Below, in pieces: positions 17,373 through 32,933 of a stretch of DNA of 62,762 nucleotides. The translations under genes and the position numbers were made by a program. A model generated the notes under the pieces. That model worked only from the letters and a program-made list of their open reading frames with translations. It searched no databases and was not told where the DNA came from. Position 1 is the stretch's first letter. Every line of letters begins with the position of its first letter. The DNA comes from an uncultured Nitrososphaerales archaeon (GTDB lineage: Archaea; Thermoproteota; Nitrososphaeria; Nitrososphaerales; JACAEJ01). The DNA lies in NCBI GenBank assembly GCA_938091495.1, contig CALLJF010000019.1:1-62762 (forward strand), given 5' to 3'.

Positions 17373-17448
17373 GGGCCCGTGGCCTAGAATGGATTAGGGC
17401 GTCAGCCTGCGGAGCTGAAGGTCGTGGGTTCAAATCCCGCCGGGCCCA
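17373..17448 (+). tRNA. tRNA-Arg(GCG)
   Basis: GGGCCCG/CGGGCCC acceptor stem, TCAGC-CT-GCG-GA-GCTGA anticodon arm, GGTTCAAATCC T-arm. Confidence 0.95.
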
Positions 17449-18331
17449 CTATATCTCGTAAATTAGTTAAGGTCTTTAGCTCTATTGGGCCTTCTTGCTC
17501 TGGGTTAATACCTGTATTAACTTGGTTAATACAGGAGACGAGCAGAATCAACGTGAAGTGATGTATGTTCTTAGTCAGATAGGCATAGCAAGGCCTGATG
17601 TAGCGTTATCTATGCTAAAGAATATGATTAGCAAAAGAATTGATGAGAATTCTCTTTCAAAAATAATCAGAGTTATTGGAGAAACGATCAGAGGACCGTT
17701 AGCAGGAAAAGTTTTGCCTATGCTAGAAGAAATAAAGCAAAAGTATCCGCTCTTGAAGGAAGTTTTTGACAACTCGATAATAGAAATTAGAAATTCTGAA
17801 AAAACAAAACCACTAAGTCCAAATAGTAAAGAGAATCTTTTGTTGAATTCAAGTTTTGAATACGGGTTATCAGGATGGAATAGCACAGGTGGAAGTGTAG
17901 CTTATATACCCGTTAAAAATTTAGGAAGTGGACAACATTGTGTTAAAGGAATTGAAGAGAGGGAAGATAATCTGGGCAGACTCTACCAAGACGTGACTGG
18001 AGTGCTAATACCAGGTCGAAAATACAAGATCAGTGGATGGATTAAAACAGAAAAAGTTGAAGCTAAAGGCGAAAGAGGAGGGGCAGTGCTAGCATTGAAT
18101 TACGTAGACCAATTTGGTTGGACTCCAAGAGACGGTTTTGTAATGGAGTTAGGTTGGAAGGAAAAGGAAAAAAGGATGGTGGGAACAAGGGATTGGACTT
18201 ATTTTGAAAGTGAAGAATTCACTCTTCCTCCAATGCCAAGTGATTGCATTGCTTTGTGGTTTTTGCTGGATTTTAATGATGGAAAGGGGACAGCCTATTG
18301 GGATGATTTATCACTAACCGAAGTCAAATAA
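17449..18331 (+). pseudogene. 5'-truncated HEAT-like repeat plus carbohydrate-binding (CBM4/9-like) domain protein
   Basis: NSSFEYGLSGW..LYQDV..GRKYKISGWIKT..AYWDDLSL (CBM-like); HEAT-like sequence continues upstream in another frame (SIGPSCSGLIPVL) up to the tRNA end. Confidence 0.55.
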
Positions 18332-18530: not shown

Positions 18531-18595
18531 CAGCTTCTTCTTCACTATACGTTCAGCGCTTATACCTTTTGAGTAAGCAGACCTTCGACGGTTTT

Positions 18596-19423
18596 TCACA
18601 CCGTCCTTAGCTTAAAGTTCACTTGATTATACAATGCATCACGACTATTTCTAGTCAGTTCAATCTCTTTTTCAATCAGGAAGTAATCTATATTTGATTT
18701 GGTAACTTTCTTGATTTGATTCTTCCTAGCCCACTCTAAACACTCTTCGACAAGCTTTGGTAAAAGCTCCTTCTCTTTCTCTATCCGCTCTTTTTCCTTC
18801 TTCAGGCGCTCCTGTTCAAACTTCTGTCTGACTATTGCTTCAACTTTCTCTATCTTTAATCGCAGTTTGGGTTCAAGGGACCATCTATGGATGCCTTTCT
18901 GTTCCCAAAATAATTCGGTGTTACGATAACCAATCATATTTGCTTCAGGGAATTCTTTAGACAAGAACGCCAACATTTCATCTGCAAGCTGATTCTCATC
19001 CTTACTTTGAATTTCTTTTAACACTTCTTCAGGGATTTGCTCTTCAACTCCATACCTAATCGCTATTGGTGGTTTCTTCATTTCATGCTCTTCTTTGATA
19101 GATTCTATCCACCATTCAGCCTGCTTTTCAAAAATATATGTTACACCATCTTTTATCCACGCAAGTTTAAGTGAACCTATCTCGTTAGTATGCTCATCCT
19201 CATCTTTATCTATCCCAACAATTATTGTCTTCGCACCTTCTTCTTTAGCTATTTCAATAAATGACTTCCAGTCATCACTTTCCGAGCTCCAAGTTACTTG
19301 GTTGAGAAATCCCTCATCAAGCGTTAACTTACCAGGAAAGATTCTAAGATTTTGTGACTTTATATATTCAACTACTTCTTCATAGATTTTATTCAAGTTC
19401 TCTGTTTCCGTCAATTCAATCAC
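18596..19423 (-). CDS. Hypothetical protein, last gene of the Argonaute/NurA-HerA-Mre11-Rad50 operon
   Basis: 275 aa ORF overlapping the rad50 end by 8 bp; acidic N-terminus, charged coiled coil. Confidence 0.75.
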   Translation of the reverse strand: MIELTETENLNKIYEEVVEYIKSQNLRIFPGKLTLDEGFLNQVTWSSESDDWKSFIEIAKEEGAKTIIVGIDKDEDEHTNEIGSLKLAWIKDGVTYIFEKQAEWWIESIKEEHEMKKPPIAIRYGVEEQIPEEVLKEIQSKDENQLADEMLAFLSKEFPEANMIGYRNTELFWEQKGIHRWSLEPKLRLKIEKVEAIVRQKFEQERLKKEKERIEKEKELLPKLVEECLEWARKNQIKKVTKSNIDYFLIEKEIELTRNSRDALYNQVNFKLRTV

Positions 19424-21437
19424 CTATGCTTGATACACCATTTAATTTTGTTACTTTAAACACGCGGTCAGCAAAGCTTTCAAGCTCTTTCTCATGTGAT
19501 ACAATAACAACTTGTGGACAAGCAAGCTCATCAAGAATATCCCTAACTTTTGATAGTTGCTCCTTGCTAAAGCCATCAGTTGGCTCATCTAGTATAAGGA
19601 GATTAGACTTTATACCTATAGAAACTTTTTGAACAAGACTGTTGAGGGCTAATCTGTAAGCTAAGGCTACACTAGTTTTTTCTCCACCACTAAGGTAAGA
19701 TATGTCTTGCTCATATCCATCCTGTTCAACTATCGGAGTAAAATCTTCATCGATCCTTGCTTCCTTGCTAGAATCTTCAACTAGCAAGCTAAACCACTTC
19801 TGAAAATGCTGGTTAAACTCTTGTTGAATAGTTATCATAGCATGCCTTTCTATATTTTCTAGCGTTGCTATGAAAAAGTCTTTTAGCCAGACAAGGTATT
19901 CGTCTAATAACTCAGCCTTCTTTAACAAGTCCTGTTTCTTATCTATCTCTTGTTTTAACTCCTCTGCTGCTTTTTTGGTTTCATCAATTCTAGATCGAAT
20001 TGATGAAACGCTCTTCTTAATCTCAGTAAGTGCTTCATTAGTCTTCTTTATTTCTTCGTCTAATAAGACGATTTCTTTTGAGACTTCTAAAAACTGCTCT
20101 AACTCTTTCCTCGCTTCCTCCAATCTTGCATTGATTCTTTTTATCTCTTCATTGATAGAAGCTATTTTATTTTTGCAATCCTTCATAGTCTCTTTAAAAC
20201 CATCTGCTTGCTCTTCGTATGCATTGAGATTATTCTGTGCAGCATTGTACTTTTTCAGTTCATCGATCAATTCCTCTAAATTTTTAATTCTTTTCTCACA
20301 CTCATTTACTGCCTTATCGGCAATCTCCTTTTCATGAATTTTGCTTTTGATTTTTTCCTCAAACTCTTTTGGATTTGCTTCTCTGTCACATGTAGGACAT
20401 ATTTTGCTTTGTTGTATAGAGCTGTAATCTTGTATTTTAGATTCTATTGTATTAGCAATCTTGATAAGCCTTTTATGTTCTTGCTTAAATTCTTCTAACT
20501 CTTCCTCTAATTCATTCTCTGTTTTATCAGTGGGCTTCTTTATCTTTGCTAACTCGTCTAACTTTGGTTTTAATTCATCCAGCTTCTTTTTCGCTATATC
20601 AAATTTTTTATTCAATTCTTCTATGCTCTTATCTTTCTCTTCGATCTGTTTCTCAAGTAATGGAATCTCACCTTGAACCGAGCTCAGCTTGTCCTTAACA
20701 TCACTAAGTTTCTTAAGCTGCTCATTTAAACCATCAAGTTTTCCTGTCAGTAATCTTTCTTGGTCAAGCAGCGGTTTGAGTTGTTTTTCATAATCTTCGA
20801 TCTCCTTAAGTTTTTTAGATAGTAGACTTCTTTTATCTCCGAGATCTGATGCTTGAGCTTTAAATTCAATAGATTTCTTATCTATTGTAGAAGCTAGGTT
20901 TAAGGCGTTATCACGCGCTATCTTGTAGTCTTCGATTCTGAAGGCTTTCCTTAAGGTCTGTAACCTAAGATCAGAGTTCATAGTAAGAATTGTCTTCATT
21001 TCTTCTTGAGGGGTAAAGACAGCATAGCGGTAAATTACACTCTGGGCTTTAGGATCAGGAGGCTCGTTGAAGTTTAAAATTTGAAGTACTTCTTCTTTAA
21101 GCTCAGTTGGAGAAAGATGACGAACTTTATCATCTACTTTAATCCAACCCTCTTTCTGCTGCACAGATTTTCCTTTTCTCACTAACGTGCGAAGAATAGT
21201 GTATTCTTTTCCATCTACATCGAATATTAAGCCTACTGATCCTTCGTTCTCGCCTGTCCTTAATAATGAAGCTCCTTTTTCAGAGCCTAAGCCAAATAGT
21301 GCGAATTCTATAGCCATAAGAATAGTGGACTTGCCAGAGCCAATATCTCCTTCAAATAACATAGTGCCTAAAGGAAACTCTATAGTTGCATCCTTGTAGC
21401 TCCTAATATTCTTCATCTTTAGTGTTTTAATGATCAT
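19416..21437 (-). CDS. rad50: Rad50 (SMC-like) ATPase, short coiled coil
   Basis: Walker A GDIGSGKS, zinc hook CPTC, signature LSGGE, Walker B LLILDEPT, VSH. Confidence 0.93.
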   Translation of the reverse strand: MIIKTLKMKNIRSYKDATIEFPLGTMLFEGDIGSGKSTILMAIEFALFGLGSEKGASLLRTGENEGSVGLIFDVDGKEYTILRTLVRKGKSVQQKEGWIKVDDKVRHLSPTELKEEVLQILNFNEPPDPKAQSVIYRYAVFTPQEEMKTILTMNSDLRLQTLRKAFRIEDYKIARDNALNLASTIDKKSIEFKAQASDLGDKRSLLSKKLKEIEDYEKQLKPLLDQERLLTGKLDGLNEQLKKLSDVKDKLSSVQGEIPLLEKQIEEKDKSIEELNKKFDIAKKKLDELKPKLDELAKIKKPTDKTENELEEELEEFKQEHKRLIKIANTIESKIQDYSSIQQSKICPTCDREANPKEFEEKIKSKIHEKEIADKAVNECEKRIKNLEELIDELKKYNAAQNNLNAYEEQADGFKETMKDCKNKIASINEEIKRINARLEEARKELEQFLEVSKEIVLLDEEIKKTNEALTEIKKSVSSIRSRIDETKKAAEELKQEIDKKQDLLKKAELLDEYLVWLKDFFIATLENIERHAMITIQQEFNQHFQKWFSLLVEDSSKEARIDEDFTPIVEQDGYEQDISYLSGGEKTSVALAYRLALNSLVQKVSIGIKSNLLILDEPTDGFSKEQLSKVRDILDELACPQVVIVSHEKELESFADRVFKVTKLNGVSSIGD

Positions 21438-22705
21438 TTGAGCACCTCGCTAAGCTGAAGAGTTCCTATCCCATGCTCTTGCATTCTTGCTTCATAGTCT
21501 TTCTTCGATTCATTCAGCTTTTGTTCTTGCCTTAGCGTTTTTAAAAGTTCAAGAGCAAGAAGCGCGCCTTTCTCATCTTTTAGGGATTCATTTGAGACCT
21601 TAATTGAACTAATACTCTCCTTGAATAACTTTCTCTCTATTGTAGCTATATCTTCACCCATTATCTTAACCGTAGCGTATTCCTTTGAGGTTAGACCATG
21701 GCGATTTAAGTAAATATAGATGGCACCGTTCTCAATAAGCATATTCTTTAGCTGGAAAAAGTCAATGTCAGAAGTCTTTCCGCCTGAGAGCTCGCCTTTT
21801 ATTTTAAGAGCGACTATCTTGTCCTTAACATCTAGCTCGCTTAACTTCTCCTTTAGCTCCTTTTGGACTTGTAAAGCATTTTTGTAAGAAGCATCATACT
21901 CAAAGTAAATGCCTTCAAAAGGTTTCATTTCCACAAACTCGATCTTCTCAACCTTATCAGAAAAGCTTACAATATAAAATCCTCTCTTCTCACCTTTGGC
22001 TGTCTGCTCAAAATCTCTACCATATCCTGTGAACAAAGGACCAGGAAAGACTACTTTCTCATAACCTGGCAGGCTATTCTCAGACCTATCATGTATATGA
22101 CCTCCAGCATAGTAATCGAAGCCTTTTGGAAGATAAGAAATCGGTATGGTCTCCATCTGGCTCAAGTATGCTGGCTTAAATTCATTCAGCCCACTATGAA
22201 AAGCAAATATCTTAAAACCATCTTCATTTTCAAGGCTTTCTCTATCTAAAATCTCATAATACTTGCTTTCTAAACCTATCTTCCTAGCAGAAATACCAAC
22301 AAGCTTCGCTTTTGTCTTTGGATCGATAAAGAATTCTAGCTTTAATTTATCATTAATCACTTTTCCCTTAGCTATTTTTGTGATAATTCCTGCACTTTCT
22401 AAAACATCTATAATAGAAGTCCCAGTAGGAGTGTAATCATGACTTCCATATATCACATAGATAGGTATGCCTTTGTCTTTCACTTCCTTCATCTTTGCAA
22501 CTGCTTCTTTGACAACACCTAAATCAGGAATTCCAACATGAAAGAGATCGCCACATATAAGAATAAAATCAACTCTCTCTTCTATGCATTTGTCCATCGC
22601 TTTTCTAAAAGTTTCTATCTCGAGTTTTTCAAGCGTAGGTTCACGATTGGCACCTAGATGAATATCAGCAATATGAACAAATTTGTACATATATTCAACC
22701 CTCAA
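21434..22705 (-). CDS. mre11: Mre11 nuclease (start possibly ATG 22690)
   Basis: Phosphoesterase motifs DIHLG, GDLFH, GSHD, FH, GHIH. Confidence 0.93.
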
Positions 22706-24242
22706 ACTCTATTTCTATTTTTCCTTCACTCTCAAACCTATCCTTTGTCCTCGACTCTTTAACAAACTCGTCAAAGAGTGGCACATAGATAGGAACGGCG
22801 AATCTTGTGAATATGCTACTTACTATTGCTTCTCCTTTATCAAGGCTAGCTATGGTTCTATCATCATCTGAAAGATCTTGAGCGGCACTCTCTATGATGG
22901 CGTGCCTTTCAGTTGCCATCTCATTACCAAGAATGATCTTTGTATTCATATTGGTTAATATGTTCCTAGGAATAACACTAGTTAACTGAGTGATAGCTAT
23001 TAAACCCACCTTAAACTTTCTTCCTTCACGTGCAATCATACTATAGATGTTCTCTCCTGATTTTGCAAGCCTGTCACTGCTAAGTACACGAGGAGCTTCT
23101 TCAATAACTATGCTTATCGTTGGCTTTTCATCAAGTTTACCTTGAGATTTGTATTCTTGATATCTTGAAAATACTTTGTTAGCCACTATGCTACCTATGA
23201 GAAGTTCTGCTTCGTCTCCGATCTTTGACGTATCTATAACAACTACTTTTCCCTTCTCTAATGCTTTAACTATGTCGTCTGTAGTTGATTCGCCTGAAGT
23301 ATCGCTAAAAACTTCGTTAGTACATCTTATCTCACCATTTTGGTAATAAACACCAAGCATGGTCTTCATTTTTCGCTGAAGGACATTAAGAGTTCTTTGA
23401 TCTACACCTTTTAGACTTTCCCCTCTTACGATTTTTTCAATCCATTCATCTCTAAACTCCCTATAATACATTGAAATTGCATCACGTTGTGCATCTGTAA
23501 AATCGACTATACCATCAAAATGTTCAGGTTGAATAGACTTGAGGTTGATCACTAATGTGTTAGCTCCAACAGGCGGGTCAGACGAATAATATAGCAAATT
23601 TTCTTTAGCACTCAGATGATCTTTTAATCCCTTGCCATTTCTGCCATAGTACTCGTCATGAGGATCAAGGACAAGAATACCAAATTTCTTTTCGTTAAGC
23701 GCACTCCATAACATGACCTTTACAAGGTTACTCTTCCCTCTTCCAGTGGTTGCAGGGATTAGAATATGATGCGCTAAAGCTTCCACACCATTCAAATAAA
23801 CATCAACGTTGAGAACTTTTGAGCCGCTTCTCACCTTACCAACATAAATAGGGTTAGGAGGTTTTATCAAGAAGTCCAAGTCCTTTTCAAGCACATGTCT
23901 TACTGTGCCAAAGAAGTCTGGAAGCACTTTTGGGACGTGAGGCTTGCTAGTAACTCTGAGTACAGATTTTGCTAAAGCCAAGACATAATTCCTTAATTGT
24001 GGTTCAAAGAATTCTAGCCCAGCTCCAAGACCTTCTAATTTCATGCCAGCAATCAATTCCCTTGCTACTTGAGAGATCTGACTGCCATAAAGCAGATCAT
24101 AAACCTGTAAGATTAAATAGCCTTCACTATTCTCAGCAACTAAAAGATCACCTAACTCTATCTTCTCTCCACTCTTCTCTCTAATGAGAATCTTTCCTAC
24201 CCCGCCAGCGATGATTTGGCCACATATCTCCATCTTTTTCAC
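22695..24242 (-). CDS. herA: HerA bipolar helicase/translocase
   Basis: HAS-barrel N-terminus, [34 protein letters not shown]. Confidence 0.92.
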
Positions 24243-25351
24243 CCCCTAAGGAAGTTCAGAATTCCATGTGCATCTTTTGATTGTATATGTCTTAAGAATT
24301 TAGGCCATGAACCAAGCTTTGATATCTCAGTCATTAGCATGATTCGATAAGTTTCTACTTCTTCATGCCTGACTCTAGCATTATAGTCTGCATCTATAAG
24401 ACCATAAGGATAGCCTGGAAAACTCACGTCGCTAGAATTGATAGATAGTTGACACATCACCTCATTAATATCTGAAGCAGATAAAAGTTTAACTTGTTCG
24501 GCGTTGATCTCATATCTAAAGATTCTTTGAGAATTATCGTTTAGCTTTACGATAAAGATGGCTGCTTTATGTTCAGGGCTCAAAGATTCAGCCACAGGGT
24601 AATAATACCAGATCGATTCTATCTTAAAATCATTAGCAAGCTTCCTGAGCGCTCCGAGTAATGATAATCCAGTGGTTGTATAGAGGCGGCTAGTCTTCGA
24701 TAGACCTGAGTATATCGCACCTTTTTCAATTGCTACTTTGTACGCTTCTTTTGCATAGTTTGATTCGTTTGTAAATGCAGCTCTTAACGTTCCATCCATT
24801 ACTAGTATATCGCCTTCATCAAGCTCATTTTCGATTATGTGCTTAGCATATTCCCATTCTGCAAACCTTCTACCTATAGAAGCTACTCTGGCTATGTCTG
24901 CTCTTGAGGTACCTATCATCAACCTTCTGTCTGTAGAGCTAAAGGATAGATCTGAAGCTCTTGGTAAGAATTTTGAGATTTCATCAGTCATAGGAAAGAT
25001 TGATGTATCAAAATAGATCTGATCTTTCCTGAAGTTGGCAGATGTTGCTGAGAAGAACTCTATTTTCTCTGGGATTGTGGTCTTAGGTATTCTTCTTTTT
25101 CCTTGGAAAATATTGAAATAAATTCGGTTAAGCTGAATTGAAAAATTAGGTGCTCCTATAAGCTCACAGTTACCTCCATCGATAAATGCAAGCTTTCTTT
25201 TAGAATTAACCATATTGATGGGTTTAAAGTAATTTACGTTAAAGGGATAAGCCCGATAGCCTTGTCTACTTAAGAACGGTTCGCCTATTTCTTCTTCGCT
25301 TACTAACTTGTTTAAGTTCCAAATTAGTTTTTTAACAGCCTCACCTAGCAT
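24239..25351 (-). CDS. nurA: NurA nuclease
   Basis: [33 protein letters not shown]. Confidence 0.9.
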
Positions 25352-25361
25352 TTATTACACC

Positions 25362-27581
25362 TCATAATAGAACCATATCATCAGGTACTCTCACTCCTGC
25401 AGAGACATTCTCACCAAGGTTCTGAGTCAGTATTTGAGGTAGAGCATACCTACCTTGCTTGAACAAAGAAGACCAGTTCAGCTTAGTCAGTCTATAATAC
25501 TCATCCATGATCTGTAATACATGCGGCCTTGGTACGCCATTCGTGTTAAGACAAAGATGCTTCTTTAGAGAAATCTCAACAGGTTGTGCTGTGCCTATCC
25601 TTGAGCTACATGATACTAACAAACCTTCATTCTCATTAAAAGCTATGGCTGTCCCTCCAGGTACGTTAAAGTAGCGGCCTAGCTTTAAATCAAAGATTCT
25701 TTTATTTGGAGTTTTATTCACTCTGATTATGTCTATTATGAGGCTTTTAGGGAACATGGAAATTCTTTTGAGGAGCTCGGGTATAGGTTCTTTTTTCTCA
25801 TCAGGTATGCCACTCATTATCACCTTTTCCATTATGTCAGCCTCATCGTCACTTATTATCCCATCTTTTGCAAATACAAACCGATTAAAGCTGAGCTTTT
25901 TCCCATCAATTCCTGTGCATCTCTGACTGAAGATTGAAATCCTTTGTATGAGATCGACTAAGATGTCATAAAAGGCAGATGGCGAAAGTTTTTCTCCACC
26001 AACGGGCTTAGTACCTGTAGTAATGTACCTGCCATAAGAGTCTGTCATAGCGCTATAAGCTGTAGCAGAGGCTTTTAGCTTTGGCCTTCTTGAGACGTCA
26101 TGATATGCATAGCATTGTGAAGCTGTGTTAGCAGCTATTGCATAAGCACTCCTATCTCCTTGAAGAATCTTTTCCACAGTCTCATAACCTATGGCTTGAC
26201 AAGGAGAAGGTTCTGTCCCAAAAATTCTCTCAAAAAGTTGATCTCTAGACTTGTAGTAGATGTCTGCGGCATAAATGCTAGGAAGAATTATTATTGCAAG
26301 TACTTTTTCTTTTTTGGTCATGAGTTTTGATCGAATCTCTACAATTGCTGAAGTATAGTCTGCAACCTTATCTCCTCCTGTGTCGATAAAACCATTATTA
26401 CCAATTTCTGTTATTGACTCTAACTCTCCAAGGTTAAGCCGTCTATACGCTTTTTCAATGAATTTTATTGCTTGCTTAGTCCCATCAGTATTGCCAAAAT
26501 GAATGACGATATACTTTCCATTTATCTTCCCTGCATGCGGGCCATGTTGTTTTAAAAGATCGTGTATCTTATCAACTGGAGCTTGAGCATTAGCTCCTGC
26601 AACTACAAAAATCTGATTAGATGATGGATAAGAATACTCTTGATAGCCAAGACTTTCTGCAATAATAGGGCCTTCGAAAGATATTGTTTGATTCAAGAAG
26701 CATAATGAACTTAAAAACGTTTTAAAAAACTCAGTAACATATCTAATTCTCTCATCTGGATCTTTCTTCAAAGTTTCTGGCAACTTACTCCTTTCTCTAA
26801 ACTCACTAAAAATGCAAGATTCAGGGTAAGGTAGCGTTCTTCCAAAAGATGGAATATTAACATCGAGCATTTCATCTTTTGGGGTTATAAAGTCGATTCC
26901 ATGTTTAACTTTCCAATATTCTTTTGTCTTTAACATTCTCGTTCTTATTGGAAATTCCATCTCATCTGCAGTTTTTCCTGCCCTGCCAATTAGTATCCCC
27001 CTAAGCCAATTTGGCAATACTCTTACTTTAATCTCTGAATCCTCACCCATTGTATCAGCCTCGTCTATCTCTTTTTCATTTAATTGAAGCATAACTCTTG
27101 TTTTAGCATCGATCCATACGCATGGGTAACCATTCTCCAACGATGCTTGAATTCTGTAAGAACGCTTGTAAGGATTCTCTTTGTTAAGAATATCCGTCTT
27201 TAAGATGTAACGATCTCCTATTTTAAGGAAGTTTTTCTTCAATACTTCTATCCTTACTTTATTTTGCCAAGCTGATTCTATGACTTCTTTGCTGTATGAC
27301 TCATTCTCTACTATTTGTGGACTCAGATTAGAATACCCAGAGAGTGTTTTCGATAACACTTCACGATTAACGTTTAATACAACAACATCAAAATTATCAA
27401 AAACTTCCATGGGTGCAACTGTAGCATCAAATCCACGCCTGCATAATGATCCAACGATGGATTGTAGGAATGCCCTTCTATCAGTCTGTTTCTCAATATC
27501 TAACCCTTGGAATCTAACATAGCAACCATGCACCTCATCTGGCACTTTGGTTTTTGATTTAAAGAGGTTGAGATATTTCAT
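25362..27581 (-). CDS. ago: Long prokaryotic Argonaute (N-L1-PAZ-L2-MID-PIWI)
   Basis: PAZ-like EYWKVKHGI..YPESC; MID YYKSR..PCQAI; PIWI HDVS, GGEK, FAKDG, IRVNK, PGGT, GTAQP, LTKLNW, R-Y-A-L-P; hydrophobic C-terminal end. Confidence 0.85.
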   Translation of the reverse strand: MKYLNLFKSKTKVPDEVHGCYVRFQGLDIEKQTDRRAFLQSIVGSLCRRGFDATVAPMEVFDNFDVVVLNVNREVLSKTLSGYSNLSPQIVENESYSKEVIESAWQNKVRIEVLKKNFLKIGDRYILKTDILNKENPYKRSYRIQASLENGYPCVWIDAKTRVMLQLNEKEIDEADTMGEDSEIKVRVLPNWLRGILIGRAGKTADEMEFPIRTRMLKTKEYWKVKHGIDFITPKDEMLDVNIPSFGRTLPYPESCIFSEFRERSKLPETLKKDPDERIRYVTEFFKTFLSSLCFLNQTISFEGPIIAESLGYQEYSYPSSNQIFVVAGANAQAPVDKIHDLLKQHGPHAGKINGKYIVIHFGNTDGTKQAIKFIEKAYRRLNLGELESITEIGNNGFIDTGGDKVADYTSAIVEIRSKLMTKKEKVLAIIILPSIYAADIYYKSRDQLFERIFGTEPSPCQAIGYETVEKILQGDRSAYAIAANTASQCYAYHDVSRRPKLKASATAYSAMTDSYGRYITTGTKPVGGEKLSPSAFYDILVDLIQRISIFSQRCTGIDGKKLSFNRFVFAKDGIISDDEADIMEKVIMSGIPDEKKEPIPELLKRISMFPKSLIIDIIRVNKTPNKRIFDLKLGRYFNVPGGTAIAFNENEGLLVSCSSRIGTAQPVEISLKKHLCLNTNGVPRPHVLQIMDEYYRLTKLNWSSLFKQGRYALPQILTQNLGENVSAGVRVPDDMVLL

Positions 27582-27585
27582 ATAC

Positions 27586-28305
27586 TTACACCAGCCTGCA
27601 TTGGAACGAAACTTCAGTCATCAAGGGAGCTACTACCCTATCTACCAACTCACGTAACACTATAACTATCTGTTCTGCAGTCAATGAAGTGTGATAGATT
27701 GTGATAATACCTTTCATGTGAAATCCTACTACAGCCTCTTCAGGTATGTCTGTTAATCTTACCTTAACTTTTTCAAGTGGCTGGTCTCCATAATCCTCCC
27801 ATATTTGCGAGTGTGTAACGCCACGCCCAACAAGGGATATTTTATCAATAGTCTCTAATCCCTTTCTTGAGGGAGTATGGTCCACTTGAAAGACGTCAGG
27901 ATTTTTTTGAATAACCGATCTTAACATGTCTTCTTTGAGTGGTATAGGCTCAAGTATTATTTCAGGGATAAAGTTATTCTCAAGAAATTTTTTCACGCGC
28001 TGCTGTATCTCTTTGGTTGCGTTTCCAGTAGCAAGGAAACTTTTGCCAAGAAAGACTATCGGAACCTCGCCTAGTGCCTTAGCCTTTCCTATTCCTTCAA
28101 GAGTTGGATATTCAAAATCGTATTCAAAGCCAAAAACAAAATACACGTTATCTTTAATTATTCTCACTGATTCAGGCAACGTACCTTCTCTATAGTCTTT
28201 ATTGCTATTCATTACAGATAGCTCTCTGGCTTTAGATGCAATTTCTTCAGGAATTATCTGTTGCTTTGGAGTTTTTATTATCAAAAAACTAGGCAAGATA
28301 TTCAC
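27586..28305 (-). CDS. Hypothetical Argonaute-associated protein (239 aa)
   Basis: Intact ORF ending 4 bp before the ago ATG and overlapping the upstream ATPase by 17 bp; no motif recognised. Confidence 0.8.
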   Translation of the reverse strand: MNILPSFLIIKTPKQQIIPEEIASKARELSVMNSNKDYREGTLPESVRIIKDNVYFVFGFEYDFEYPTLEGIGKAKALGEVPIVFLGKSFLATGNATKEIQQRVKKFLENNFIPEIILEPIPLKEDMLRSVIQKNPDVFQVDHTPSRKGLETIDKISLVGRGVTHSQIWEDYGDQPLEKVKVRLTDIPEEAVVGFHMKGIITIYHTSLTAEQIVIVLRELVDRVVAPLMTEVSFQCRLV

Positions 28306-29230
28306 TCTCCTGAGAGATTCTTAACTCAACAAAAGGAAGCAATTCTTCCTTGATCCTGTAAAAAGAGAATTTGCCAAACCTTTCATTATGTAAGATTCGC
28401 TCTGATACGAACTTGTTCAAATGATAAGATACCGTAGCTTTGTCCCTATTTAGAACCTCAACTAATTGTGAAGGTCTAATACCTCTTGGGTCAGGATTCA
28501 AAATAATGTTTCTAAGAATCATAAGCTGTAATTCATCTAAAGATTTCAGCTTTTCAAACATATTGTGCAAACTCATTGTTTGGGCTGCCATCTCAACCGA
28601 TTCGATATCTAAACTAGTTTTCTGCTTGAGAAAAGCCTCATGCAAAGTTCTTAAAAATAGTGAGATTATGCTACCAGGAATTCCAAGCGTGAATTCATAA
28701 ATCTTCTCTGCTAATTTAACGTCTAATTTTACTTTTCCACCTGAAGCATAGTCAGTGATTCTACTCAAAAAAAGTTCAGTATCATCCTTGCTCAATGGCT
28801 TTAGATAGTTTTCTCTACTTGTAGCGATGATAGTTTCGATTTTCCCTTTGAAAAAATTCCAGTGAAGGGGTTCCCAAGCAGTGATTAAAATGCCGTTGCT
28901 AAATACTTTCAAGAACTCTTTTATCGAGTATTCTATGTTTCTATCTTCCTCACATGAATCGATAATTAAAACATCAGGTTTTTCACTCTTAAGGCTCTCG
29001 AGATGTTTAAGGAATACTTGCTCATCTTCATCTTGTTCTGAGAATGTTGAGGCATCAAAATAAATAGATTTTAACCTTATTTCTGGTCTTTCACAAAAAG
29101 ACTTTAGAATTCTTAGTAAGTGCGTTTTGCCAGAACCTTTTCGGTTAATCTTGTTTTGAAGCTTGAATTTTATAACTAATTTTTGAAGGTGTATAATAAG
29201 AACAGAGTAGTTATTAATTTCTTGTAATTT
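28289..29230 (-). pseudogene. P-loop AAA+ ATPase with C-terminal wHTH; 5' end lost
   Basis: Frame stays open upstream of the called TTG (28912) through NRKGSGKT (Walker A) and VLIIDS (Walker B) to a stop at 29231-29233 with no ATG/GTG/TTG; wHTH RPSQLVEVLNRDKATVSYHL. Confidence 0.7.
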
Positions 29231-30605: not shown

Positions 30606-32933
30606 TTGATTGAGATGTTGCCAAAAAGTGCGTTCAGCTCCTTGTTGAGCGTGCTGCTCGGGGAAAAATCTATAAAAAGCGAAGATTTGAATAACGTGAC
30701 TTTGGAGCAAGCAGAAGAAATTATTTTCCCAACCTTGGTAGGCAATTATGAAGGACTGAAATTTTTTGAGGAAGAAGGTCTGGGAAAAAGATTGCGTTCT
30801 CTGAAGAAATACATACTAAGCCAGCCTACGTTAATCTACTATGTCATGCGCTCTCTTCCTATGGCAGCTTTATACACAGCAGCCGGGCTTTTGTACTCAG
30901 CAGGCGGGCTTTTGGCTAACAGTCAAGGCAGGGCTTACTTAAAAGATTCAGTCAAAGGCCTGTTCTCTAAACCAAAGGAGATATTCTCGAAGATAGACAA
31001 GGAATCCGAGAAGGAGTTCAAAGAATGGATGGAGGGACAGGGATATTCTATAAAAGAAAGGGAGGACGGCTGGGTGTTCTACGCGGATGAGATAAAAGAC
31101 GGGGACCCGAGAAAGAAAGAGAAGATCGGATTATTTAGAAAGGCGTACCCAGTGCTAGAACTGAAAGAGAGTCCGTTGAGTGAAGAGAAGATCGGGGAAA
31201 AGCGTTTGACCGTGGTGACTGATTATGAAGAGGAAGCTAGAAGATACGTTGAAGAACTGGAGATGAACGCACCTGTAGAGTGGTTGCCGATTTTGGTTGA
31301 TGTTGGAGTGGCGTTGGAGAAAAAACACTTCATCTCAAGAGAAGAATATTCAGACAGGCTGAGCAAATGGGAAAAACAGGAGACAGAAAAGCTTTACGAA
31401 TCTTTTGAAGCATCGGATTACAAGAAAACAGTCGAGAGTGTGGAGAAGATCGGGGAGAGAGCTAGCTATAGCAGCCAAAGGCGTGTGGCTGAGGGCTTGG
31501 TCGAAAGGTTGAAGCAGGAGAACAGAAAAAAAGATGCTAAAAAAATTGAAAAGTATTTTAAGGATGCGGGGATAATTCCACCGCCTGGCTATCGTCTGCC
31601 GATAGCGGTTGGCGCTGGCCTTGGGGCATGGTTCACGCTTGATTTAACGAACACAGCAATACTAGGCGTTATACCCGGTCCGATAAACCTTTTGGAAGCC
31701 ATAGGATATTCTGTCAACACTGGCTTGGACTGGAAGCATTCCGTGGATTTAGCCTTGCACACAGACACTCTCTATGTTCTGGGACAGATGATACACGGGG
31801 AAGAGACCGAGATGTCTAAGGCTATTAGCATCTGTCAGCAGCTGGAGGCCAGCAAAGACGAGAAAGCTTATGATCTGGTAAAGTTCTTTTTAAGCGACGG
31901 GAGAATTTTACCGGAGGAGGTTAAGGCTGCGAATTATTTTCTGCAGGCAAAACAAGTGATACCAGACGGGCCGAGGGCTTACTACACTCAAGAAGAACTG
32001 GGGAGTATAGGGTATAATTTATACGCATCACTCTCGGCAGACGGAAGAATCGGCCCTGATGAAGAACAAGTATTGCAAGCCTTGAACACGGTAGAATGGA
32101 AGAACAGATGGTGGATTGTCAGGGACATTTATAATTCTGGGATGGTCGAGAGCACTGCTCTTAACCAGGACTGGGATAAAGACGGGATTAGTAACATTGC
32201 AGAAATAATGAACGGAACAAACCCTTTGAATAAGCTTGAGGTTGATCCGAGCAATCTGAGCGATAGATATGCTGTTATTACAGCAGTTACAGGTTATGCC
32301 CATATTAGTGTTGAAGTTAAAAGCGTGAAAGGAATTATGGAGTTTTTATATAGGAACGGCTATAATGATGACAATGTATTCTTAGTTCACAACCCAGGTG
32401 GCGCAGCTAACTATGAAATCATGAAAACCTTTCCTATAAAGGTTGATTACAAAGGACCTTCTGATAGCCGTGCTACCGCAGAGGCTTTCTTGAATTACAT
32501 AAAAAATTTGCCTTCTGACGTAAATGATCAAGTTTTTGTTTATGCAAGTGCGCATGGGAATGTAAATTACATCCATATGGGAGGAAACGTACACTTTTCA
32601 GAATTTGGTGATGCATTAAAACAGATGGACTGTGGGGAAGCTGTAGTTGTTATCAATTGCTCTAACGCTGGTGGTTATGTAGAAAATTTATATAATTACT
32701 TGGAAAAAAATCCAAATATGCTAATTATCGGGACTCAGTCTAAAACAGAAAGTTTAGACTTCACACTAGAAGTTACAAAATTTGTTGGGTACTTGGACTC
32801 TGGTTTAAGCATCGAAGAAGCGTTCAATATATTTGCTTATGAGCTAGGAAAAAAAGGTTATCACCCCGTTATGTACTCTGGAAGAGAAGAGCCGTTTACC
32901 AATTTCTTAGTCTATAAGAAATCACAAGAATAG
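30606..32933 (+). CDS. Membrane-anchored protein with Ca-binding repeat and C-terminal clan CD (C13/caspase-like) peptidase domain
   Basis: Hydrophobic segments near aa 80-105 and 330-365; DWDKDGISNIAE; RYAVI, VFVYASAHG, VVVINCSNAGG. Confidence 0.65.
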   Translation: MIEMLPKSAFSSLLSVLLGEKSIKSEDLNNVTLEQAEEIIFPTLVGNYEGLKFFEEEGLGKRLRSLKKYILSQPTLIYYVMRSLPMAALYTAAGLLYSAGGLLANSQGRAYLKDSVKGLFSKPKEIFSKIDKESEKEFKEWMEGQGYSIKEREDGWVFYADEIKDGDPRKKEKIGLFRKAYPVLELKESPLSEEKIGEKRLTVVTDYEEEARRYVEELEMNAPVEWLPILVDVGVALEKKHFISREEYSDRLSKWEKQETEKLYESFEASDYKKTVESVEKIGERASYSSQRRVAEGLVERLKQENRKKDAKKIEKYFKDAGIIPPPGYRLPIAVGAGLGAWFTLDLTNTAILGVIPGPINLLEAIGYSVNTGLDWKHSVDLALHTDTLYVLGQMIHGEETEMSKAISICQQLEASKDEKAYDLVKFFLSDGRILPEEVKAANYFLQAKQVIPDGPRAYYTQEELGSIGYNLYASLSADGRIGPDEEQVLQALNTVEWKNRWWIVRDIYNSGMVESTALNQDWDKDGISNIAEIMNGTNPLNKLEVDPSNLSDRYAVITAVTGYAHISVEVKSVKGIMEFLYRNGYNDDNVFLVHNPGGAANYEIMKTFPIKVDYKGPSDSRATAEAFLNYIKNLPSDVNDQVFVYASAHGNVNYIHMGGNVHFSEFGDALKQMDCGEAVVVINCSNAGGYVENLYNYLEKNPNMLIIGTQSKTESLDFTLEVTKFVGYLDSGLSIEEAFNIFAYELGKKGYHPVMYSGREEPFTNFLVYKKSQE

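Follow-up and report, generated by a model that had tools for sequence, protein, structure and literature searches.

A rare clade of predicted long prokaryotic Argonautes encoded beside DNA end-resection genes in archaea

The gene string and its products

The window analyzed here is an entire 62,762-bp contig (C19) of an archaeal metagenome-assembled genome (MAG; G000, 1.39 Mb, 96.6% complete), and the records of that genome's close relatives bear the name Nitrososphaerales. Its minus strand carries a tightly spaced string of genes in which a predicted long prokaryotic Argonaute (pAgo; gene ago) precedes nurA, herA, mre11 and rad50, the genes of a DNA end-resection machine. The list of open reading frames (ORFs) holds eight at the coordinates below, with the first taken as 28289–28912. 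An earlier reading of the DNA, here called the original prediction, had described eight minus-strand genes separated by −17, +4, +10, −4, −11, −4 and −8 nt, and the ORF coordinates reproduce these junctions exactly. It had also pointed to the string TGAGGTGTAATAAATG at the ago stop and nurA start, which is present. The features, in gene order, are:

28289 to 29138, minus strand: 5′-truncated archaeal-type P-loop ATPase fused to a winged helix-turn-helix (ATPase-wHTH); the sole startable ORF, 28289 to 28912 (207 aa, TTG), lacks Walker A
27586 to 28305, minus strand: 239-aa protein, conserved partner of the window's Ago clade
25362 to 27581, minus strand: predicted long prokaryotic Argonaute, 739 aa, a deletion allele (relatives about 760–780 aa); PADLOC pAgo match at 1.1e-35
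26115 to 26116, no strand: junction of a 93-nt in-frame ago deletion, flanked by ATGCTA microhomology in relatives
24239 to 25351, minus strand: NurA nuclease, 370 aa, starting 10 nt past the ago stop; Pfam NurA 1e-10
22695 to 24242, minus strand: HerA hexameric translocase/helicase, 515 aa; DUF87 1.4e-31, HerA_Thermprot 1.2e-29
21434 to 22705, minus strand: Mre11 nuclease, 423 aa; Metallophos 8e-16, Mre11_Pyroc 5e-34
19416 to 21437, minus strand: Rad50 with a short coiled coil, 673 aa, zinc hook C347-P-T-C350; AAA_23/SMC_N, NCBIfam Rad50 2.4e-60
18596 to 19423, minus strand: 275-aa protein, 8-nt overlap with rad50, restricted to the genus

The 739-aa protein is recognizable as an Argonaute mainly through profiles. 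The PADLOC model (PDLC02436) covers residues 336–728, and Pfam gave no match even at E≤10, nor did NCBIfam; for a family member, P0051, the Pfam Piwi model reached 1.4e-6 and 28.3 bits, marginally below its cut-off of 28.9. Searched against the PDB, the window protein alone returned a marginal match to VbAgo (E=0.014) and a narrow family profile (A1) returned VbAgo only, at 9.6e-5. Broadening the profile with distant members (A3, 34 sequences) brought in 64 Argonaute/PIWI chains at E≤1. The alignments run nearly end to end along solved structures—VbAgo (6.2e-32, the best), CpAgo (2.4e-26), TtAgo (8.5e-13), PfAgo (3.5e-12), PIWI proteins and human Ago1/2—spanning residues 64–745 of VbAgo and 14–692 of CpAgo. 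Window residues 197–301 correspond to VbAgo 232–338, and the profile alignments place an N/PAZ half ahead of MID-PIWI, the architecture of a full-length long pAgo. VbAgo and CpAgo (PDB 9v65, 9jh7) are the nearest solved Argonautes by profile, alignable over nearly their full length and sharing the catalytic D, E and D, although the window family is detectable from them with the widened profile only. Other probes of the same database were less productive: a C-terminal-only profile (A4) found HrAgo1 alone, off the relevant motif, and the distant member P0091 on its own found nothing. No characterized Argonaute occurs among the cluster members of 10 distant matches.

Residue-level comparison agrees with this placement. 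D495, E530 and D573 (window numbering) are invariant in the 34 sequences, which span about 17–57% identity; the D-to-A changes of the deposited VbAgo-DM and CpAgo mutant align with D495 and D573, and E530 corresponds to the glutamate finger, where a conserved G-E is aligned between A3 and the PDB chains. The MID pocket of the family comprises Y442, R446, Q462 and N485 together with a nearly invariant lysine in VK(L/F)GG, a pattern of the Y-R-Q-…-N-K kind, and the profile aligns Y, K, Q and K of CpAgo to these positions. The motif that binds the guide 5′ end is described as YKQTNK, with variants such as YR among long-A pAgos (PMC6299218). Intact relatives carry it as the YR variant; the window protein has lost the last lysine. 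Taken together, these comparisons identify the 739-aa protein, as the original prediction had proposed, as a predicted long prokaryotic Argonaute of a rare clade remote from mainstream Argonautes. The family comprises 67 clusters at 90% identity, and a search among 1.84 billion sequences gave 116 representatives within the E≤1e-3 limit, 34 of them at E≤1e-30. The sister group represented by P0101 and P0121 consists of Ago-like proteins that are larger (about 895 aa) and have a C-terminal motif in common with the family and a Lys at the position of window Q720; by hhalign these non-canonical proteins lack the first and/or third catalytic Asp.

For the four resection genes, Pfam and NCBIfam matches and conserved motifs bear out the identities first proposed. 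HerA and a NurA-domain nuclease are encoded with Mre11 and Rad50 in four overlapping or abutting genes. All phosphoesterase motifs of Mre11 are kept (GD53, G87-x-H89-D90, H170, G202-H203-x-H205), as are those of Rad50 (G35-K36-S37 of Walker A, Q144, the zinc hook, S583-G-G-E586, D617-E618, H648), whose Walker A, Q-loop, signature, Walker B, H-loop and CxxC are each kept by 90% or more of the 43 family members. HerA has its conserved Walker A G167-x-G-K-S, E382 and R408, and every family-conserved residue of NurA is present. None of the four reaches its NCBIfam equivalog cut-off (Rad50 204.5 bits v 700, Mre11 117.8 v 600, HerA 103.1 v 800, NurA 21.8 v 400), which says little, as the models derive from other lineages and none of 14 control genomes passed those for Rad50 or Mre11. 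The window HerA scores better on repair-type than on anti-phage HerA models (1.2e-29 v 2.7e-11). Its neighbor Mre11 is the sole Mre11 match in the genome.

Two proteins flank this core without a family name. The 239-aa protein gave no match in Pfam, NCBIfam or PADLOC scans; its family comprises 45 clusters, every one named hypothetical, and it sits directly 5′ of ago in 15 non-redundant loci at a median gap of −4 nt. The 275-aa gene lies outside the conserved system: a hidden Markov model search gave three members only (the window, G001 and G004), nothing related follows rad50 at other loci, and Pfam scans gave no confident family match. A scan for bacterial-type promoters and terminators found 33 promoter-like sites against 32.8 expected and is uninformative for an archaeon.

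The genome also holds relatives of the resection proteins elsewhere. A divergent pair, NurA (406 aa) and HerA (about 500 aa), lies on contig C21 at about 28.5–31.1 kb (L001, L005); this NurA passes the Pfam cut-off (45 bits), and this HerA has its highest scores with the CedD and anti-phage HerA models. Of the second resection operon about which the original prediction had asked, this pair is what exists, there being no second Mre11-Rad50 pair in the genome. Other SMC-like ATPases besides Rad50 are present, among them an 831-aa protein on contig C54 (L011, 1075–3570) that matches the arcadin-4 (Rkd4) model best (8.5e-36, well under cut-off) and has no Mre11 partner. Lamassu was considered and rejected as an identity for the cluster: the Rad50-like protein matches an LmuB model at 7.5e-34, but the other proteins of the cluster match no Lamassu model, and the Rad50-like protein has Mre11 as its partner and contains a zinc hook.

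Argonaute–resection linkage is conserved across phyla

Loci of the family were collected by family-alignment scans of one genome per GTDB species (15 loci) and of JGI metagenome contigs (41 loci), and were annotated with iterative profiles of the window's eight proteins, Pfam being used where these left gaps. Collapsing the Agos at 95% identity gave 39 clusters. Outside this count stand L080, L081, L082, L119, L120, L121, L122 and L123, to which no Ago ORF of at least 60 aa was assigned: at L081, L119, L120, L121 and L122 an Ago 3′ fragment is followed by resection genes, L080 has a split Ago with Mre11-Rad50, and L082 and L123 have a 28-aa match only and no resection gene. By record name, the hosts are Nitrososphaerales, Bathyarchaeota, Halobellus clavatus and a MAG labelled Gammaproteobacteria.

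Where at least 2 kb of downstream sequence is available, a gene of the NurA, HerA, Mre11 or Rad50 families directly follows ago on the same strand in 27 of 32 clusters. With at least 6.5 kb downstream, HerA, Mre11 and Rad50 are all present in 19 of 24, or in 20 of 24 if the Mre11 of L069, seen by tblastn, is counted. Spacing is tight: the median gap from ago to nurA is 7 nt over 19 non-redundant loci, and from ago to mre11 it is 21–24 nt over five. The original prediction had suggested looking for ago near nurA-herA-mre11-rad50 in other archaea, and these counts contradict any notion that the adjacency is unique to one assembly.

The resection module itself comes in several forms. Type 1 has the order ATPase-wHTH, 239-aa gene, Ago, NurA, HerA, Mre11, Rad50 (about 675 aa), and occurs in the window, in a further two species of the genus, in a Bathyarchaeota MAG and in many metagenome contigs; in a variant, the ATPase gene is divergent and the 239-aa gene missing. 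Of the eight-gene operon originally described, the first seven members recur in this order, with the eighth confined to the genus. In type 2, Ago is followed by a weak NurA (Pfam E=0.006–0.01, under cut-off), HerA, Mre11 and Rad50 (about 843 aa). Type 3 runs ATPase-wHTH, 239-aa gene, Ago, Mre11, Rad50 (about 900 aa), NurA (Pfam 2e-31), 207-aa gene, HerA, and occurs in Halobellus clavatus, in related metagenome contigs and in the MAG labelled Gammaproteobacteria. The gene between NurA and HerA encodes 205–207 aa without a Pfam match in Halobellus clavatus (L076, 17605–18228) and in the MAG labelled Gammaproteobacteria (L075). Other helicase-nucleases occupy the corresponding place at two of the five clusters that fall outside the 27: at L071 (12318–15023) a 901-aa Cas4/Dna2-type nuclease fused to an SF1 helicase lies between Ago and Mre11-Rad50, and at L073 (12378–15380) a 1000-aa UvrD + PD-(D/E)XK protein of the AddA/RecB type directly follows Ago. 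L094 and L095 have near-identical Agos (branches 0.034 and 0.041) and very different resection modules, the Mre11-Rad50 branch of L094 measuring 4.5 substitutions/site, which implies a recent exchange of modules.

The linkage is conserved across phyla and outlasts the swap of the resection module for non-orthologous ones; its persistence through such replacement points to a functional tie rather than a frozen accident.

Genomic setting and damage to the Argonaute arm

Within the genus, Ago occurs in two of the four other species; it was found neither in the 36 genomes that represent other genera of the family and order nor in any of 400 genomes sampled from the phylum. The homologous block common to the window, G001 and G004 is exactly 18586–29148, and the flanks differ. 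The closest relative by lysyl-tRNA synthetase (LysRS; 97% identical), G002, has neither the cluster nor any Mre11. Its synteny with the window extends up to 17456 and resumes at about 35.2–35.9 kb, and a tRNA-Arg(GCG) gene at 17373–17449 lies exactly where it stops; this gap beside a tRNA gene therefore marks the stretch of roughly 18 kb that holds the cluster as a variable region. No direct repeat of the tRNA-Arg end was found between 17.3 and 36 kb, and no integrase among the ORFs scanned. Within the window, the neighbors of the cluster are housekeeping genes (Cdc48, LysRS, P-type ATPase). The cluster of G004 (L053/L068) encodes resection proteins 92–97% identical to the window's, its LysRS being only 86% identical, a comparison that rests on one housekeeping gene and hints at exchange of the cluster within the genus.

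The window's own Ago carries a lesion that the original prediction had not noticed. Thirty-one residues are missing that are present in all 28 other members of a 29-member family alignment, and DNA alignment with G001 and G004 traces the loss to the 93-nt in-frame deletion at 26115/26116 between ATGCTA microhomologies. The deleted segment is nearly invariant and includes VK(L/F)GG, whose lysine ends the guide 5′-end binding motif. The first gene is damaged as well. It had been drawn as an ATPase-wHTH reaching 29230, which does not hold: codons without a stop extend back to about 29233 and include those of a Walker A (GSGKT), but no ATG, GTG or TTG occurs before 28912, and homology to the relatives' proteins (364–379 aa, with AAA_16/ATPase_2 and MarR/ArsR HTH domains) ends at about 29138–29148. 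The gene is 5′-truncated.

Contigs of other sequencing runs bear on both lesions. In run X1, contigs are 100% identical to the window, with depth on either side of the 26115 junction and a Logan contig that bridges 29138; the two lesions therefore did not arise as an artefact in a single assembler's output. Relatives about 92% identical are the source of the contigs of X2 and X3, in which extra letters stand at 26115 and the ATPase coding sequence runs on past 29138. The runs are labelled marine (X1) and hot springs (X2, X3), from which no habitat conclusion is drawn. Lineage-specific residue changes number 33 in the window Ago and 12 in that of G004 (p=0.0025), whereas Mre11 (11 v 10) and Rad50 (22 v 23) are balanced.

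Damaged Agos beside resection genes are found elsewhere too: a 3′ relic at L081/L122 and frameshifted genes at L111, L114, L116 and L121, with the resection genes intact except at L121, where nurA and herA are themselves split. Because the window's lesions are matched by these relic and frameshifted Agos beside mostly intact resection genes, the Ago arm seems to have been lost repeatedly while the resection genes were kept.

Interpretation of the linkage and rival readings

The field has yet to settle how DNA-guided pAgos acquire guides and distinguish self from non-self. On balance we lean, by a modest measure, toward a role in guide-directed DNA interference for this rare long-pAgo clade, with its two dedicated partners tightly spaced upstream of a DNA end-resection machine; the mechanism is one that we infer. 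The targets would be plasmids or viruses. Mre11-Rad50 and HerA-NurA would process DNA ends into small single-stranded DNA guides for Ago, and/or destroy DNA that Ago has marked, bound or nicked, and the ATPase-wHTH and 239-aa proteins may serve as regulatory or adaptor subunits. The arrangement could be an operon-encoded counterpart of the cooperation between CbAgo and RecBCD. A bolder version, which we put forward tentatively and would rate somewhat short of an even prospect, has the whole clade (in archaea, occasionally in bacteria) hard-wired to a machine that both makes its guides and destroys its targets, an ATP-driven end-resection complex for which Dna2-like or AddA-like helicase-nucleases can stand in; with the ATPase-wHTH and a 239-aa adaptor this would make a seven-gene DNA-interference system.

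A number of observations weigh against a dedicated interference system. Slicer activity of the family is uncertain because its members all appear to have Gln (Q720) at the fourth catalytic position rather than D, H, N or K. That position was placed by way of TtAgo D660, which we take to be the fourth tetrad residue, and the TtAgo alignment ends close by, at residue 662 (profile position 737). The tetrad is given as DEDX, with X being D, H, K or N, in the available portions of two surveys (PMC6299218; PMC11442185). The window's copy may not work at all because of the 31-aa deletion and the truncated ATPase gene; judged from its sequence, the Ago arm of this genome is probably inactive or decaying. 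No family member was found in IMG/VR or PLSDB, and no other defense genes lie beside the cluster within the window. Five of the 32 loci have no NurA-, HerA-, Mre11- or Rad50-family gene after ago; no recognizable nuclease or helicase was found at L072, L074 and L097, which are among these five, or at L117. The loci are, moreover, non-independent and were collected through Ago.

The resection operon also leads a life of its own. Among 8000 candidates scored, Mre11 of the window type forms 2904 clusters at E≤1e-60, about 40 times the 67 clusters of Ago, and many are named from Nitrososphaerales and Bathyarchaeia. The relatives G005, G019, G016 and G037 carry nurA-herA-mre11-rad50 without ago; in the stretch fetched, G009, G018, G022, G026, G028, G033 and G036 have mre11-rad50 only, and the contigs of G031 and G038 end at the cluster. 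Ordinary housekeeping genes lie upstream of nurA at ago-less loci. Because this type of operon mostly occurs without ago, it is primarily a general resection operon to which Ago and its two partner genes are an add-on on a minority of copies, and the self-contained system originally envisaged is doubtful. Adjacency of Ago could even reflect shared regulation instead of joint mechanism, because the operon is far commoner than Ago and stands without it in relatives. In a Mre11+Rad50 tree, the ago-less Nitrososphaerales operons are nested inside Ago-linked ones, in an unrooted topology obtained by a quick method with long-branch warnings, in which all rows from outside the order had been gathered through Ago. 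Derivation of the order's resection operon from an Ago cassette was rejected given the 2904 Mre11 clusters. The Ago-linked set is an additional one in some hosts: a second Mre11 occurs elsewhere in Halobellus and in Bathyarchaeia G043, and the Ago-linked Mre11 and Rad50 of Halobellus fall far under the haloarchaeal equivalog cut-offs (70 v 550 and 153 v 1000). In Bathyarchaeota G042, as in the window's genome, the Ago-linked Mre11 is the only one found.

These points feed several other explanations. If the Gln at the fourth tetrad position disables cleavage, Ago might act only as a sensor directed by its guide, and the resection machine, recruited or licensed by Ago, would be the effector nuclease; resection would not be needed to supply guides, and the arrangement would be like that of long-B and short pAgo systems with associated nucleases. 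Inactive pAgos with effector nucleases are an established kind, as the available text of PMC10620215 and PMC11442185 describes them, and here the effector-like module varies (NurA-HerA-Mre11-Rad50, Dna2-like, AddA-like) while Ago stays; the sister proteins P0101 and P0121 have Lys at that position and are missing catalytic aspartates. We nonetheless consider this doubtful, as invariance of D495, E530 and D573 across such divergent sequences argues for retained catalysis. A rather less probable view assigns the Ago trio—ATPase-wHTH, 239-aa protein and Ago—to chromosome maintenance, be it guide-directed break repair, recombination or replication termination, as an optional accessory of a housekeeping resection operon. 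TtAgo has been linked to completion of replication (PMC7776575, in its available part), the sole Mre11 of the window's genome and of G042 is Ago-linked, and the surroundings of the window's cluster are housekeeping genes rather than a defense island. Patchiness and rarity speak against maintenance, however, with no occurrence among the 400 phylum genomes and presence in two of four other species of the genus, as do the position in a variable region beside a tRNA gene, the repeated decay of Ago while resection genes persist (the window, L081/L122, L111, L114, L116, L121) and the extra, paralogous nature of the Halobellus set.

Regulatory hitch-hiking, in which the Ago trio borrows the expression of the resection operon or shares a DNA-damage-responsive promoter without mechanistic cooperation, seems to us unlikelier again. 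The operon is indeed widespread without ago, and at the annotated loci the trio is always upstream of it, never within. Yet the linkage holds with non-orthologous modules and other gene orders (haloarchaeal Mre11-Rad50-NurA-x-HerA, Dna2-like with Mre11-Rad50, AddA-like), which is hard to obtain through one insertion preference, and the common denominator is a function, helicase-nuclease end processing, rather than a sequence. Least credible by far is a chance insertion of ago upstream of a housekeeping operon in this assembly alone, the outcome that the original prediction had named as its undoing. Part of that description fits, in that G005, G019, G016 and G037 do carry the same operon without ago; its core does not, given adjacency in 27 of 32 non-redundant Ago loci from several phyla and the full cluster in two other species of the genus. 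The original interpretation is thus partly supported: the Argonaute and its linkage hold beyond the assembly, more broadly than was then known, and the damage to the window's own Ago arm tells against it at this locus.

Comparison with known systems places guide-directed interference, the reading we favor, in context. In the available text of Kuzmenko et al. (bioRxiv 10.1101/2020.03.01.971358), guide generation by CbAgo depends on double-strand breaks and RecBCD, and pAgos are proposed to adapt to differing break-processing machineries. Like CbAgo, the window family would be a long pAgo that targets DNA and draws its guides from double-strand breaks on which the cellular helicase-nuclease acts. 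The partner of CbAgo, however, is the host's unlinked RecBCD, and co-occurrence is analyzed there, in the text available, at genome level and for RecBCD/AddAB only; the window clade, distant and rare, has its end-processing machine in the same tightly spaced gene string. From the archaeal herA-mre11-rad50-nurA operon (PMC13748450 and PMC2288612, in their available parts) the window shares the four protein families, all catalytic motifs and the Rad50 zinc hook; it differs in its order (nurA-herA-mre11-rad50), its short Rad50 (673 aa), equivalog scores far under cut-offs, the ago and two partner genes that precede it, and its absence from the closest relative.

Argonautes in operons with nuclease or other effector genes, patchy and spread horizontally, are known from long-B BPAN/BPAS/BPAM (PMC10620215), the haloarchaeal pAgo-PLD system APAP (PMC11442185) and short pAgo SPARTA (PMC9097488), so far as the accessible portions of these papers go. 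Where SPARTA/SPARSA, BPAN/BPAS/BPAM and APAP have such effectors, the window has a four-protein ATP-driven end-resection machine, and PADLOC and Pfam scans of all eight window proteins found no SIR2, TIR, PLD, Mrr/DUF4365-type nuclease or membrane effector. Bacterial NurA-HerA and SIR2-HerA anti-phage systems (PMC13748450, PMC11472057, PMC11514289, PMC11291478) likewise set a HerA-family translocase and a nuclease partner against foreign DNA but, in the available text, have neither Argonaute nor Mre11-Rad50. Searches of the literature for Argonaute together with HerA, NurA, Mre11, Rad50, SbcC or SbcD found no description of this operon. The main text of PMC10620215 nowhere uses the terms Mre11, Rad50, HerA, SbcC, SMC or helicase, and the accessible part of PMC11442185 has neither Mre11 nor SbcC; PMC2743648 mentions HerA solely in connection with sirtuins. 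The main text of PMC6299218 is also without these protein names, although its supplementary orthogroups og_47, og_55 and og_62 ("hydrolases and phosphatases") may list Mre11-like neighbors. pAgo systems with nucleic-acid-processing partners are, in short, already known, and an end-resection operon as the partner was not found described in the literature searched.

The best current model of how guides are made, CbAgo with RecBCD, draws on an enzyme of a heterologous host that is not genetically linked to Ago. A pAgo clade encoded with an end-processing machine offers a genetically defined, transferable unit for testing whether break processing and Ago loading are coupled. If our reading is correct, this would be a natural system for dissecting that link and the first defined operon composition for a long-pAgo group; according to PMC6299218, none could be made out for particular groups of pAgos. 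For archaeal DNA repair, the Ago-linked Mre11-Rad50 is the only copy in some genomes, the window's included, and close relatives have none.

The same variable region of the window encodes, at 30606–32933, a 775-aa protein with a weak C-terminal match to peptidase C13 (legumain-like), which is present in none of five close relatives.

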